In this document: one piece after another, positions 6,288 through 9,689 of the stretch
Layout of the letters: every line of letters begins with the position of its first letter
Numbering within the stretch: position 1 is the stretch's first letter
Origin: Escherichia coli
Lineage (GTDB): Bacteria > Pseudomonadota > Gammaproteobacteria > Enterobacterales > Enterobacteriaceae
Reading direction: 5' to 3' (one strand)
Length of the DNA stretch: 64,000 nucleotides
Assembly: GCF_050920415.1 (NCBI RefSeq)
Contig: NZ_CP169309.1
The notes under the pieces: generated by a model
Database searches by the model: none
Told to the model about the DNA's origin: nothing
What the model saw: the letters and a program-made list of their open reading frames with translations, nothing else
Translations under genes and position numbers: made by a program

Positions 6288-6517
6288 TCCGCCACATCGT
6301 TAATTCCCTGTATCACCGATACAACCGTTGCCCCCGGGTGGGGCAGTGGTTCACCACCAGCAACGGCCACGTTCTGCGGGTTTGCCTGGTCAATACAGAA
6401 AGCCAGAAGGTTGTCTGCCAGGTTCAGGGACGTACTCATACCCTGAGTTATCCGCTGGTGGCGTTTCAGTCCGGAAAAATGTTTAAACGCCTGGGAGGTG
6501 GCTATGCGTCCGTCTGA
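6284..6517 (+). CDS. Hypothetical 77-aa protein sharing the MIRxH start/junction of the Rha paralogs
   Basis: Begins at the third copy of the junction GGAGGTGCGCCCATGATCCGCCA; overlaps the start of the O-like gene. Confidence 0.4.
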   Translation: MIRHIVNSLYHRYNRCPRVGQWFTTSNGHVLRVCLVNTESQKVVCQVQGRTHTLSYPLVAFQSGKMFKRLGGGYASV

Positions 6518-7412
6518 TCTTCTGCTCGATTTTGGACATCCGGTTGCTTATTACCCTGGGCTCGTTAAATACATGGGAAGTCCGCACGCTGTTATTTTCT
6601 TTGGTCAGATTTTTTACTGGCAGGATAAAGCACATGCAGCGGAAGGCGTACATAAAACGCGTGAAGAGATACAACACGAAACCGGACTTACATTTGAACA
6701 ACAGGCTGTAGCGCGTAAGCATCTTGTGTCCAGAGGCATTTTGGTTGAAACCAACAAGCGTCTTGAGCACAAAATGTTCTACCGTATAGATTGTGAGCGC
6801 CTTAATGAAATTATCAATGAAAACAATCAGTTTTCCCGAAATGGGGAAACCCGTTTTCGGGAAACTGTAAAACCCAATTTCGCGGAGGAGGGAAAGCCTT
6901 CACCGCGGACACGGGAAACCCCTCGCCGCGGAGAAGGGAAAACCAATTTCGATCTTACAGAGAATACAACAGAGATTACTTCAGAGAATACTACAGAGAG
7001 TAAAAACACTATTGGCGCATCCGCTGACGCGTCTGCACCAGCACGTTCTGCCCGACAGGAATATTCACCGGAATTTGAACAGGCCTGGCAGGAATATCCC
7101 AAACGTGCTGGTGGTAATTCCAAGTCAGCAGCCTTCAAAGCCTGGAAAGCCCGTATCAGGGAGGGAATAAAACCGGAGACCATGCTTGATGGTGTGAAGC
7201 GGTATGCCGCCTGGGTACGTGCTACAGGAAATACCGGCACACAGTTCGTGAAGCAGGCTGCGACGTTCTTTGGACCCGATCGTCACTTCGAAGATTACTG
7301 GCAACAGCCAGCCGCTCCCGGAGGTGGGCGACAGCGACAGGTCGATGTCCTGGCTGGCCTGGGAGCCATGTCTGACAAATTCGGTAAATCCAGTGACAAA
7401 CTGACATTCTGA
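6504..7412 (+). CDS. Replication initiation protein (lambda O-like replisome organiser)
   Basis: N-terminal domain typical of replisome organisers, acidic low-complexity linker, C-terminal domain; precedes the helicase loader. Confidence 0.65.
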   Translation: MRPSDLLLDFGHPVAYYPGLVKYMGSPHAVIFFGQIFYWQDKAHAAEGVHKTREEIQHETGLTFEQQAVARKHLVSRGILVETNKRLEHKMFYRIDCERLNEIINENNQFSRNGETRFRETVKPNFAEEGKPSPRTRETPRRGEGKTNFDLTENTTEITSENTTESKNTIGASADASAPARSARQEYSPEFEQAWQEYPKRAGGNSKSAAFKAWKARIREGIKPETMLDGVKRYAAWVRATGNTGTQFVKQAATFFGPDRHFEDYWQQPAAPGGGRQRQVDVLAGLGAMSDKFGKSSDKLTF

Positions 7413-7413
7413 G

Positions 7414-8301
7414 GTGACAGCGATGATGACGATTAACCAACGTGAGAAACAAACAAGACTACAGGCGCGAATGGATGAGTTACGGGCAGAGATTGCATTT
7501 GCTCAGAATGGCGAAAAGCCATGGCCTTACCGCGCCTGCCGGGAATCTGAAGGGGTTGGATGCTGCGAAAAACACGGTAAATATCGTACGCATATACTGG
7601 TGTGGGATGATCGGCAGGGGGGCGCTGTCTCAAAAATTTCCCGCTGTCCGGAGTGTCTGGTGGATGAAATGGATGTGACACATCGGACTCTGGTTGCAAT
7701 GAAAGCTGATGTGCTGATTGAGAATGCTGGTGTTGCCTGTAGGTTTCGCGACTGTGAGTTTGAAAACTATCAGGAGATTAACTCTGATGCAGCCAGAAAT
7801 CTTGCTGCCTGCCGCCGCTATGCAGAGAGCTGGGAGGATGTTCTGGCTAACGGTACCAGTCTTGTTCTGACAGGCAGTTGTGGTACCGGAAAAAATCATC
7901 TGGCTGTGGCTATGGCAAAACACATCATCCGTAACCATCTGGCCAGTGTGGAGATTACTGATGTGATGCGCCTTACCCGTGCTGTGAAAAACTGCTGGCG
8001 GAATGACAGCGAAAAAACAGCGGATGAAGTTATTGAGCATTATGCGTCATTGGATTTGCTGATCATCGACGAAGTCGGCGTTCAGTTTGGCAGCGCGGCT
8101 GAAATGGCTATTTTGCAGGAAATTATCAATGCCCGGTACGAAAGCATCCTGCCCACCATCCTGATCAGCAACCTTTCACCGGAAGAGTTGTGGGCGTTCA
8201 TCAGCCCCCGCATTGCCGACAGGATCACAGACGGGGGACGCAACTGGTTGTCGTTTAACTGGCCCAGCTATCGTGCGCATATTGGAGGTGTGGCTGCATG
8301 A
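7414..8301 (+). CDS. DnaC/IstB-like helicase-loader ATPase
   Basis: Walker A (GSCGTGKNHLAVA) and Walker B (LLIIDEVG) motifs. Confidence 0.8.
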   Translation: MTAMMTINQREKQTRLQARMDELRAEIAFAQNGEKPWPYRACRESEGVGCCEKHGKYRTHILVWDDRQGGAVSKISRCPECLVDEMDVTHRTLVAMKADVLIENAGVACRFRDCEFENYQEINSDAARNLAACRRYAESWEDVLANGTSLVLTGSCGTGKNHLAVAMAKHIIRNHLASVEITDVMRLTRAVKNCWRNDSEKTADEVIEHYASLDLLIIDEVGVQFGSAAEMAILQEIINARYESILPTILISNLSPEELWAFISPRIADRITDGGRNWLSFNWPSYRAHIGGVAA

Positions 8302-9689
8302 CCACTCCAGTATGGCGTAACGATGATCTGGAAGGCGCTGTCATTGGCGCGTTTTTTCTGCGTGGGGCAGATCATGAAGTGATGGATATTCTGGCCACAC
8401 TGCCAGCGGACGTTTTTTCTGTACGAGCGTATAGGGATATCTACACAGGCATCTGCCGACAGGCTCGTGTTTCAGGTGTGATTGATCCTGTGCTGCTGTG
8501 TAATGAAATGCCGGAACTTGCTCCGGTGATTACTGATACCGGGCGTAAAACCTGGGTGAAGTCTTCACTGGAGCACTATGTTGCAGCGTTGCGGCGCAAT
8601 GCTGCATTGCGTGATGCAGAAAAAACACTGAATGAGGCGCTGCAGAAATTACGTGATGCGCATACCTGTGAAGCAGCTGAAGATGTCCTGAAGGATGCGC
8701 AGAACATGATGGCTTCATTGTCGACGGAAAAGGGCATTATTCAGCCGATACATATTGATGATGTGCTTCCGGAGGTGGTTGAGCGTGTTGAATGCCGGAA
8801 TCAGGGACTGGAGAAATCCAGAACGTTGATGACCGGTATTGAGGAGCTGGACGCAAAGACAGGTGGCATGGAGCCCGGCGACCTGGTGTTCATTGCGGCT
8901 CGTCCGTCAATGGGCAAAACCGAACTGGCGCTGGATATCATCGACAAGGTGACTGAGCAGGGGCATGGTGTTCTTCTGTTCACAATGGAAATGGCGAACA
9001 TCCAGATTGGTGAACGCATGGTATCTGCGGCTGGAGGAATGCCGGTATCACGCCTGAAATCTGTCACTCACTTTGAAGATGAAGACTGGGCGCGTTTCTC
9101 ACAAGGGGTGGGACGGATGACCGGTCGCAATATCTGGATGGTGGACCAGGCGAATCTGACCATTGATGAGATATGCGCAACAACGAAACACCACCTGATT
9201 AAACATCCGGAAACGGCGCTGGTGGTGGTTGATTATCTCGGGCTGATAAAAACCCGGAGCACGGGGCGTCATGACCTTGCCGTGGGTGAAATCTCAAAGG
9301 GGCTTAAAGGCCTGGCAAAATCCGGTGGTTTTCCGTTGATTGCGCTGAGCCAGCTCTCCCGCGGTGTGGAGTCCAGGCCCAATAAACGCCCCATGAACTC
9401 AGACCTGAAAAATTCCGGAGAAATAGAGGCGGATGCAGACATCATTCTGATGCTTTACAGGGATGAAGTGTACAACCCGGATACGCAGGCCAGGGGCATC
9501 GCAGAAATCAATATCACGAAACAACGTAACGGTTCTCTGGGGACAATTTACCGGCGTTTTTATAACGGACATTTTCTGCCTGTAGACCAGGAAAGCGCAC
9601 AGGTTCTTTCCACCCCAATGCAGCCGCCTCAGCCGCGCAGATACAGCAATAAACGAACCGACAGTAGTAAGATGGAGCGTTTCTTTTGA
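8298..9689 (+). CDS. DnaB-family replicative helicase
   Basis: RecA-like core with Walker A (ARPSMGKTELAL) and DnaB-type motifs (DYLGLI, ALSQLSRGVE). Confidence 0.85.
   Translation: MTTPVWRNDDLEGAVIGAFFLRGADHEVMDILATLPADVFSVRAYRDIYTGICRQARVSGVIDPVLLCNEMPELAPVITDTGRKTWVKSSLEHYVAALRRNAALRDAEKTLNEALQKLRDAHTCEAAEDVLKDAQNMMASLSTEKGIIQPIHIDDVLPEVVERVECRNQGLEKSRTLMTGIEELDAKTGGMEPGDLVFIAARPSMGKTELALDIIDKVTEQGHGVLLFTMEMANIQIGERMVSAAGGMPVSRLKSVTHFEDEDWARFSQGVGRMTGRNIWMVDQANLTIDEICATTKHHLIKHPETALVVVDYLGLIKTRSTGRHDLAVGEISKGLKGLAKSGGFPLIALSQLSRGVESRPNKRPMNSDLKNSGEIEADADIILMLYRDEVYNPDTQARGIAEINITKQRNGSLGTIYRRFYNGHFLPVDQESAQVLSTPMQPPQPRRYSNKRTDSSKMERFF

Follow-up and report, generated by a model that had tools for sequence, protein, structure and literature searches.

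Does the prophage in this stretch of Escherichia coli DNA bring a replicative helicase and a helicase loader of its own to its origin, and how much of the host replication machinery would it then still need? The stretch analysed, 64 kb in length and called the window here, contains at positions 6504-9689 a replication cassette that runs exactly from the ATG of ORF1 through the helicase stop codon. Its three genes point in the same direction (Table 1) and form an ordinary prophage cassette of an origin-binding initiator, a DnaC-type loader and a DnaB-type helicase. The original prediction had placed a phage-borne loader and helicase of these families 3' of an O-like initiator, and for the loader and the helicase it is borne out by matches in Pfam, PHROG, NCBIfam and the PDB. 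Cassettes of this kind have already been catalogued in phiP27 and in many Shiga-toxin (Stx) phages, and the present one is not new. Taking the proposed mechanism as a whole, we regard it as probable that the cassette serves a lambdoid, phiP27-like prophage as its module for theta-type initiation of replication, and that it belongs to the type that combines initiator, loader and helicase.

Table 1. Features of the replication cassette and its immediate neighbours (positions in the window)
Feature	Position	Strand	Details
77-aa ORF, function unknown	6284..6517	+	PHROG 1153, E 2e-43; overlaps initiator start
Initiator (ORF1)	6504..7412	+	302 aa; alternative GTG start 6498; PHROG 270
Predicted origin iterons	6835..6944	.	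Three exact 18-bp copies, a degenerate copy and a palindrome
Predicted DNA-unwinding element	6945..7012	.	AT-rich; three overlapping 12-bp-periodic repeats (CAGAGAATACnA-type)
DnaC/DnaI-family AAA+ helicase loader (ORF2)	7423..8301	+	292 aa; alternative GTG start 7414; PHROG 50
DnaB-family (SF4) replicative helicase (ORF3)	8298..9689	+	463 aa; Pfam DnaB_C; PHROG 19
85-aa ORF, function unknown	9686..9943	+	PHROG 2565, 4.3e-32; 80 aa if ATG 9701 is the start

The three proteins of the cassette

The identities of the three proteins are firm, and the loader and helicase calls both passed the profile searches with which the domain annotation was checked. ORF3 is a member of the DnaB family and not the host equivalog. 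It reaches 245.9 bits on Pfam DnaB_C (PF03796; cut-off 27), and its residues 9-86 match the DnaB N-terminal domain, the collar that interacts with primase (PF00772), weakly but above threshold (25.5 bits, cut-off 23, E 1.4e-5). The PHROG match is at 4.7e-117. On the NCBIfam model TIGR00665 it scores 312 bits, under the cut-off of 385, and on the phage_DnaB model TIGR03600 276 bits against 499. Aligned with E. coli DnaB over 434 columns, the protein shows 34% identity, and its ATPase motifs (ARPSMGKT, VVVDYLGL and ALSQLSRG...RPMNSDLKNSGEIEADAD) align with those of DnaB. These features point to an SF4 replicative helicase, for which a hexameric activity of 5'-3' polarity is predicted.

ORF2 matches Pfam PF01695 (57.9 bits) and the PHROG family annotated "DnaC-like helicase loader" (E 5e-83). 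The NCBIfam DnaC model gives it 135.5 bits, below the equivalog cut-off of 357, and the nearest solved structure in a PDB sequence search is E. coli DnaC (E 1.7e-30). When the ORF2 model was searched with Foldseek, the DnaC of the DnaBC complex came first (1.4e-6). Identity to E. coli DnaC is 33% and is confined to residues 92-289, the AAA+ part, where 13 loader homologs show no variation in Walker A (GTGKNH), in Walker B (DLLIIDEVG) or in the columns R263/D266/R267, taken as evidence of the arginine finger. The N-terminal ~90 residues are unrelated to DnaC and carry an invariant CxxH...CxxC motif, with C48, H51, C75 and C78 unchanged in the same diverse set of 13. This N-domain, a putative zinc ribbon, was modelled by AF2 at a pLDDT of ~90 as a helix, three strands and a helix. 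The AAA+ domain was poorly modelled because the alignment held only 13 sequences, and the model is therefore informative for the N-domain only.

ORF1 is a replication initiator that resembles lambda O in architecture only. It matches a PHROG family of "replication initiation protein" (E 5.7e-67), and profile searches found no Pfam or NCBIfam family for it. In the AF2 model, a winged-helix N-domain (residues ~18-110) is joined by a disordered linker (~110-184) to a small helical C-domain (~185-260) and a disordered tail; the models of ORF1 and of the loader are both shallow, with mean pLDDT values of 57-58. Foldseek matches of the N-domain were generic winged-helix folds, DnaD-N and RepA_N initiators among them, none with an E-value below 0.02, and the C-domain had no match. 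PDB sequence and profile searches with ORF1 returned marginal winged-helix regulators only. Even with the domains run separately and E<=1 allowed, Pfam gave nothing for either ORF1 domain or for the loader N-domain. The label "O-like" thus holds for the architecture and the inferred role. It fails for sequence: the BLASTP match to lambda O is a spurious one of 18 residues (E 0.04), the N-domain has no Phage_rep_O match in Pfam at E<=1, and the C-domain is unrelated in sequence to the P-interacting domain of lambda O.

A predicted origin within ORF1

The DNA that encodes the disordered linker of the initiator (residues 110-184) holds a cluster of repeats followed by an AT-rich stretch. A pattern search located exact copies of CGCGGAnnnGGGAAAnCC at 6881, 6904 and 6927, at a spacing of 23 bp, and a degenerate copy at 6835 that is accompanied by a palindrome at 6832-6864 (inverted repeat I3). 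Within the 64 kb, copies with no mismatch are confined to this cluster. The iteron pattern has 10 matches in the whole window against 6.5 expected, a count that is not significant because the pattern was derived from the same sequence; what supports the iterons is that exact copies exist, that they cluster and that they co-vary with the N-domain. Among 95 sequences, the iterons are present in all 19 with an N-domain of the ORF1 type and in none of the 75 without it, the one further case lying on a truncated contig. Two of the 19 are loci that have a C-domain of the lambda O type instead. Initiators with other types of N-domain carry different iteron families, of 3-5 copies, at the same position.

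The stretch 3' of the iterons, which codes for the "TENTTEITSENTTE" linker, has an AT content of 69%, compared with 50% for the gene, and no other 60-bp window within 6284-10308 is as AT-rich. Its 12-bp-periodic repeat (family D1) is also found 3' of the iterons in L084-L086 and L092. Iterons and AT-rich stretch together are predicted, from sequence, to be an origin within the initiator gene that would work in a lambda-type layout; the likeness would be one of function and not of membership. A scan for promoters and terminators found promoter-like sites at chance level and was uninformative on the module.

Gene junctions and neighbours

The cassette had also been described as having overlapping stop and start codons, which holds for two of its three junctions. 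The TGA of the loader gene (8299-8301) overlaps the ATG of the helicase gene (8298) as ATGA, an arrangement by which translation of the helicase is coupled to that of the loader, and the TGA of the helicase gene (9687-9689) overlaps the TTG start of the next ORF at 9686. The initiator and loader genes are merely adjacent: the initiator stop at 7410-7412 is followed by the possible loader starts GTG 7414 and ATG 7423, and the GAGG Shine-Dalgarno sequence of the loader spans the initiator stop codon.

Two small ORFs flank the cassette. The upstream ORF of 77 residues, which has no Pfam match, has a homolog in 77 of 82 related loci, the other five being truncated upstream, and it is a constant companion of the module in the E. 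coli relatives. The 85-aa ORF is coupled at one end to the helicase stop and at the other to the antiterminator Q start. In E. coli loci this ORF comes after the helicase gene; in those of Salmonella, Serratia, Pantoea or Klebsiella it does not, and for this reason it is probably not core to the module.

Distribution and comparison with known systems

The module is present in 211 of 5,426 complete E. coli genomes, and is public as L17-L19 of phiP27 and in Eru7-type Stx phages; the window itself contains no stx genes. The triplet of initiator C-domain, loader and helicase also occurs in prophages of Salmonella, Serratia, Pantoea and Klebsiella, where the short overlap of loader and helicase genes is 4 bp in four loci and 20 bp in the Klebsiella loci. 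The linkage within the triplet is strict. Although the initiator N-domain is swapped in most of the 82 loci, every one of them keeps the C-domain, loader and helicase contiguous, and in all loci examined, from five genera, the loader gene lies directly 5' of the phage helicase gene.

In phiP27 (NC_003356; L17-L18-L19) and Eru7-type Stx phages (reference LC567818.1), the loader, the helicase and the 85-aa ORF have 82-98% protein identity to those of the window, and the initiator C-domain is 98% identical. They share the gene order of the window as well (cI, cro, Ash/Rha, 77-aa ORF, initiator, loader, helicase, 85-aa ORF, Q), and the genes are already annotated as a DnaC-like loader and a replicative helicase, with the two labels swapped by the depositors of LC567818.1. 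What differs in phiP27 is the initiator N-domain, which is of the HTH_36 type and goes with other iterons.

The O-P genes of lambda occupy the same place, 3' of cI/cro and 5' of Q. Lambda O has an origin-binding N-domain and a partner-recruiting C-domain, as is proposed for the initiator here, and the lambda origin has the same layout, with annotated iterons 1-4 and then an AT-rich region inside the O gene (PMC7466680). The sequences of the O protein and of its iterons are, however, unrelated to those of the window, and the P protein is replaced by an AAA+ DnaC-type loader and a dedicated helicase. The expectation that no lambda P-type recruiter would be present proved right, as Pfam, PHROG and NCBIfam all failed to detect such a gene in the prophage. 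Nature has in fact joined the two designs: initiator P0036 has the same N-domain as ORF1, with its iteron cassette, fused to a C-domain that has 35% identity to residues 150-270 of lambda O, and the prophages that bear it are without any loader or helicase. This shuffling of initiator domains is visible in alignment A3. The O protein and origin described as "P27" by the Gdansk group belong to an O/P module of the lambda type, which has six iterons resembling those of lambda, and are not the module of the window.

The three-part logic of initiator, loader and DnaB-type helicase is shared with SPP1 (G38P-G39P-G40P) and with B. subtilis (DnaD/DnaB-DnaI-DnaC), systems whose hosts and sequences are unrelated to those considered here; G39P is not an AAA+ protein. 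P22 gene 18/gene 12 combines a lambdoid initiator with a DnaB-family helicase and is hence independent of host DnaB; it has no separate loader gene, unlike the present module. In the E. coli DnaC-DnaB complex (PDB 6QEL/6QEM), the AAA+ core of the loader and the helicase are the homologous parts, and the N-terminus that DnaC shares with YdaV is unrelated to the Cys/His region of our loader. DnaC itself reportedly goes back to a phage gene that was domesticated (PMC5109545). B. subtilis DnaI has a zinc-binding N-domain for helicase interaction, with three Cys and one His as ligands, followed by AAA+ (PMC2673437). The loader of the window also has three Cys and one His, in the order C-x2-H...C-x2-C as against Cys67, Cys70, His84 and Cys101 in DnaI-N. 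Ligand order and secondary structure are different, DnaI-N is absent from the Foldseek matches of the loader model, and the likeness is an analogy only.

How the module may work

A mechanism can be proposed from these parts. The winged-helix N-domain of the initiator would bind the 18-bp iterons in its own gene, and this binding would destabilise the adjacent AT-rich, 12-bp-periodic stretch. The conserved C-domain would then recruit the phage's DnaB-type helicase in complex with the DnaC-type AAA+ loader; the loader would hold its cognate helicase through the Cys/His N-domain and spend ATP to set the ring onto the unwound strand, after which host DnaG primase and DNA polymerase III would take over. 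These two host functions should still be needed, because neither the visible part of the prophage (its left end lies outside the window) nor an annotated 99.5% relative showed a gene for a primase or polymerase.

Genomic linkage and the distinct N-domain of the loader suggest that loader and helicase are a cognate pair. Independence from host DnaB and DnaC is plausible in view of the gene content and the non-DnaC N-terminus of the loader; the original prediction had spoken of replication that is largely host-helicase independent. Going one step further, it is quite possible, though we stop short of calling it probable, that the Cys/His-N-domain loader and the adjacent helicase are a self-contained orthogonal pair that does not touch host DnaB or DnaC. 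Through the common initiator C-domain the pair would be plugged into interchangeable cassettes of winged-helix N-domain and iterons, with the shared AT-rich 12-bp repeat as the recombination joint. The further idea that the module helps the phage to escape host-targeted defences has no support; PADLOC gave weak P-loop matches only and nothing relevant to a defence or anti-defence role.

The loader could also be turned toward the host, by loading or sequestering host DnaB while the initiator itself recruits the phage helicase, the arrangement known from P22 gp18/gp12. It would then be a host-takeover factor, and replication would not be independent of the host helicase. P22-type modules do run on an initiator and a helicase with no loader, and the AAA+ part of our loader is clearly DnaC-like by identity and by its first Foldseek match. 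Some lambdoid prophages, moreover, have a DnaC-type loader but lack a helicase and must use host DnaB: Rac YdaU/YdaV is one case, with YdaV 50% identical to E. coli DnaC at full length, aligned from residue 2, and with no adjacent phage helicase, and Sp4, Sp10 and Sp12 of Sakai are others (PMC2669165). However, the N-terminal region common to the helicase-less YdaV and E. coli DnaC is missing from the loader of the window, and the overlap of its gene with the start of the DnaB-type gene immediately 3' of it, kept in five genera, is what would be expected of stoichiometric partners. We consider such a host-directed role unlikely.

That the cassette is the decaying relic of a cryptic prophage, with no function left in replication, is very unlikely. 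Many E. coli prophages are indeed defective (PMC2669165), the related initiator P0036 sits in prophages devoid of loader and helicase, and the loader and helicase of the window fall under the curated NCBIfam equivalog cut-offs. Yet such scores are expected of phage paralogs of host equivalogs, and all of the ORFs have their full length; the catalytic motifs are intact and do not vary among homologs, and couplings and Shine-Dalgarno sequences are preserved. The prophage keeps its repressor, Q, lysis, terminase and tail genes, and the same module is carried by the isolated, inducible phages phiP27 and PhiR49_2. Least credible, and effectively refuted by scores, structure matches and operon context, is the reading of ORF2 as an IstB-type transposition helper of an IS21-like element that lies by chance within a replication module. 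Its best Pfam family is named IstB_IS21, the NCBIfam model IS21_help_AAA gives 72.9 bits (also below its curated cut-off), and IstB is second in Foldseek (2.1e-3). But PF01695 covers DnaC too, DnaC is ahead in both NCBIfam and Foldseek, and the PDB sequence search returns no IstB. Neither an IstA transposase nor IS ends are adjacent to ORF2. In all 82 loci, and in other genera too, the gene stands between the initiator and the DnaB helicase as part of a conserved replication operon of prophages.

Significance

The main value of this analysis is a correct annotation, and it opens no new biological question. The Eru7 type is defined by the Ash/Rha genes beside cI and not by replication genes, and according to those who drew up the Eru typing scheme (PMC8951638), nothing is known about the replication proteins that Eru phages encode. 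For the phiP27-like and Eru7-type Stx phages, the replication genes are the initiator-loader-helicase triplet with a predicted origin in the initiator gene, and not the typing genes. The host functions that Stx phages require are worth knowing because their replication drives toxin production; phages of this type would be expected to need DnaG and DNA polymerase III, and perhaps not DnaB or DnaC. If loader and helicase are indeed an orthogonal pair, a widespread prophage family that includes Eru7-type Stx phages would replicate independently of host DnaB/DnaC, and it would offer a natural system in which to study how AAA+ loaders choose their helicases.

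The three genes and their junctions

The module at 6504-9689 begins exactly at the ATG of a 302-residue ORF and ends exactly with the stop codon of one of 463 residues; a 292-residue ORF lies in between. The original prediction took these for an initiator, a DnaC-like helicase loader and a DnaB-like helicase, and profile searches agree for all three. ORF1 matches PHROG 270 "replication initiation protein" (E 5.7e-67) along with several PHROGs named "replication initiation O-like" and "DnaD-like", and has no family match in Pfam or NCBIfam. ORF2 is recovered by PHROG 50 "DnaC-like helicase loader" (5e-83), by Pfam PF01695 (57.9 bits) and by NCBIfam DnaC (135 bits), and among solved structures E. 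coli DnaC is its closest relative (1.7e-30). ORF3 scores 245.9 bits for DnaB_C and 25.5 bits for the DnaB N-domain; it shares 34% identity with E. coli DnaB and keeps the motifs of the ATPase domain.

The genes had also been described as joined by overlapping stop and start codons. This holds for the loader and helicase (ATGA, 8298-8301) and for the helicase and the next ORF (TTGA, 9686-9689). It does not hold for the initiator and loader: the initiator stop (7410-7412) only lies next to where the loader starts (GTG 7414 or ATG 7423), and a GAGG straddles that stop codon.

Features of the prophage in and around the replication module
Feature	Coordinates	Strand	Remarks
CI-type repressor	2494-3189	-	
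ORF6N anti-repressor, then Lar-like gene			after CI-type repressor
First Ash/Rha ORF	4753-5433		
isrK then C4, first copy	4828-5016	+	
Second Ash/Rha ORF	5415-6287		
isrK then C4, second copy	5481-5669	+	
77-aa ORF	6284-6517		PHROG 1153
Initiator (ORF1)	6504-7412	+	302 aa
Degenerate iteron	6835		start
Exact iterons	6881, 6904, 6927		starts
AT-rich region	6945-7012		
Loader (ORF2)	7423-8301	+	292 aa
Helicase (ORF3)	8298-9689	+	463 aa
85-aa ORF	9686-9943		PHROG 2565
Antiterminator Q	9943-10308		
DUF4236 gene	10476-11663	-	395 aa; PHROG 17982
Terminator-like hairpins	11855-12385		several, strong
STnc490	11891-12005	+	Rfam, 72 bits
STnc100	12205-12393	+	Rfam, 114 bits
Lysis, HNH and terminase genes			after Q

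The prophage surroundings

The lambdoid prophage that carries the module occupies about 1-37 kb of the window, with its left end outside and host genes beyond. From the second Rha ORF through Q, stop codons overlap or adjoin the following starts, which points to a single operon. Two small ORFs, with PHROG labels that give no function, border the module, and almost every E. coli relative keeps their translational coupling to it; the versions in Salmonella, Serratia, Pantoea and Klebsiella lack the downstream ORF.

Within the Ash/Rha ORFs, an isrK sRNA with a C4 antisense RNA behind it occurs in two tandem copies (59-83 bits, all above the Rfam gathering scores). Because they coincide exactly with the Pfam "Phage_ASH" calls, the "Ash domain" of these ORFs may be no more than translated RNA genes, and the start of the true Rha-type proteins may lie farther downstream. 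The STnc490 and STnc100 matches are located between Q and the lysis genes; together with the hairpins they probably mark the Q-dependent region of the late promoter and terminator. The gene of the DUF4236 protein (function unknown) lies in a low-GC segment (41%) between Q and the late genes on the opposite strand, and looks like a moron; the protein has no PADLOC match.

A predicted origin within the initiator gene

A comparison with lambda O led us to reject ORF1 as its sequence relative. The AF2 model of ORF1 consists of a winged-helix N-domain (residues 18-110, pLDDT about 80), a disordered linker (110-184), and a small, helical C-domain (185-260) with a disordered tail. Winged-helix proteins were all that profile and fold searches returned, with weak significance; DnaD-N and RepA_N initiators are among them.

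The linker-coding DNA contains three exact copies of CGCGGAnnnGGGAAAnCC and a degenerate one, and no other copy with zero to two mismatches exists anywhere in the 64 kb. Directly after these iterons comes the most AT-rich part of the module (69% AT), with three 12-bp-periodic repeats. The arrangement is like the annotated layout of lambda, with iterons and then an AT-rich region, both within the initiator gene.

Iterons and N-domains were compared in 95 sequences. The iterons are present in 19 of the 19 sequences with the ORF1-type N-domain, two of which have a lambda-O-like C-domain (35% identity to lambda O residues 150-270), and in none of the 75 without it, the one exception being a contig that ends at the iterons. 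At least five N-domain types are found in the initiator alignment A3; the other types have their own iteron families of three to five copies, at the same position as in ORF1, and these precede either the shared 12-bp repeat or another AT-rich repeat. The iterons track the N-domain type, and this comparative evidence supports a function of the candidate origin.

A related initiator, P0036 (L092 4001-4981; also L093), has the N-domain and three iterons of ORF1 together with a lambda-O-type C-terminal domain, and is common, with 124 index blocks. Downstream of its gene come Dam, a LexA-like gene, RusA, KilA-N, DUF968 and Q, with no P-like, DnaC-like or DnaB-like gene. P0036 is either from a decayed lineage or an initiator recruiting host helicase directly.

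The loader-helicase pair and host dependence

The loader aligns with E. coli DnaC from residue 92 onward only (33% identity), whereas YdaV of Rac, a prophage loader of DnaC type with no adjoining helicase gene, matches DnaC at 50% identity from residue 2. The first 90 residues of the loader, modelled as a helix, three strands and a helix (pLDDT about 90), include C48, H51, C75 and C78, invariant in 13 diverse homologs. Helicase binding by B. subtilis DnaI depends on a zinc site at its N-terminus, with three Cys and one His (PMC2673437). The resemblance is one of analogy, as ligand order and predicted fold differ, and Foldseek with the loader model did not recover DnaI-N.

In all 82 related loci the initiator C-domain, loader and helicase lie side by side. 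The same triplet occurs in Salmonella, Serratia, Pantoea and Klebsiella prophages, with loader homologs of 53-60% identity and a loader gene that slightly overlaps the DnaB-type gene. From these sequence comparisons we infer that loader and phage helicase are a matched pair. That the loader acts on host DnaB instead is unlikely, and that the module is a decayed remnant is more improbable still; the reading of ORF2 as an IstB transposition helper is effectively refuted, with next to no probability left to it.

The most likely mechanism is that ORF1 would recognise the origin in lambda style and its C-domain would recruit a complex of the phage helicase and loader; ATP-dependent helicase loading would follow, and host DnaG and Pol III would act next. 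Neither the visible part of the prophage nor its annotated 99.5% relative showed a gene for a primase or polymerase. The module would plausibly be independent of host DnaB and DnaC, and P22 gene 12 and P1 ban are precedents as phage DnaB analogues. The further suggestion of escape from host-targeted defences is without support; PADLOC yielded nothing relevant.

Relation to known phages

A prophage of E. coli E21845/O/A matches the 4-kb block at 99.5% identity; its genes carry the RefSeq labels "hypothetical protein", "ATP-binding protein" and "replicative DNA helicase". The block is about 90% identical to Stx1a-converting phages and 86-88% to Stx2a-converting ones, whose genes are annotated as "phage replication protein O", "DNA helicase" and "replication protein". 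phiP27 matches at 92% across 79% of the block length, with L18 as "DnaC-like helicase loader" and L19 as "replicative DNA helicase". At least 80% of the block is present in 211 of 5,426 complete E. coli genomes. What the O-some literature calls "P27" is a phage with lambda-type O/P and should not be confused with this module (PMC7466680).

LC567818.1, which serves as reference for the published "Eru7" phage type, has the same layout. Eru typing used two genes adjoining cI (Ash/Rha) "regardless of their function", and according to that paper nothing is known of the replication proteins of Eru phages (PMC8951638). The lambdoid prophages of O157 Sakai have already been sorted by lambda-P-, DnaC- or DnaB-type "elongation" genes (PMC2669165). 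In LC567818.1 (7134-9421, locus L095) a 296-residue AAA+ loader is labelled "DNA helicase" and a 466-residue DnaB-type helicase "replication protein"; the labels are effectively swapped in this and other LC5678xx records.

In several relatives, such as Escherichia phage ASU11 and Stx2 phages, some 1 kb of additional DNA interrupts the module match. Annotations under these split matches include an HNH endonuclease (ASU11) and ydfU; LC567818.1 carries ydfU between its 85-aa ORF and Q, a junction that seems to be a site of variable insertion.

The original observation holds and was read correctly; the system itself is already known and annotated. What is added here are the coordinates of the predicted origin, the swapping of iterons and N-domain as a cassette, and the non-DnaC Cys/His N-domain of the loader.
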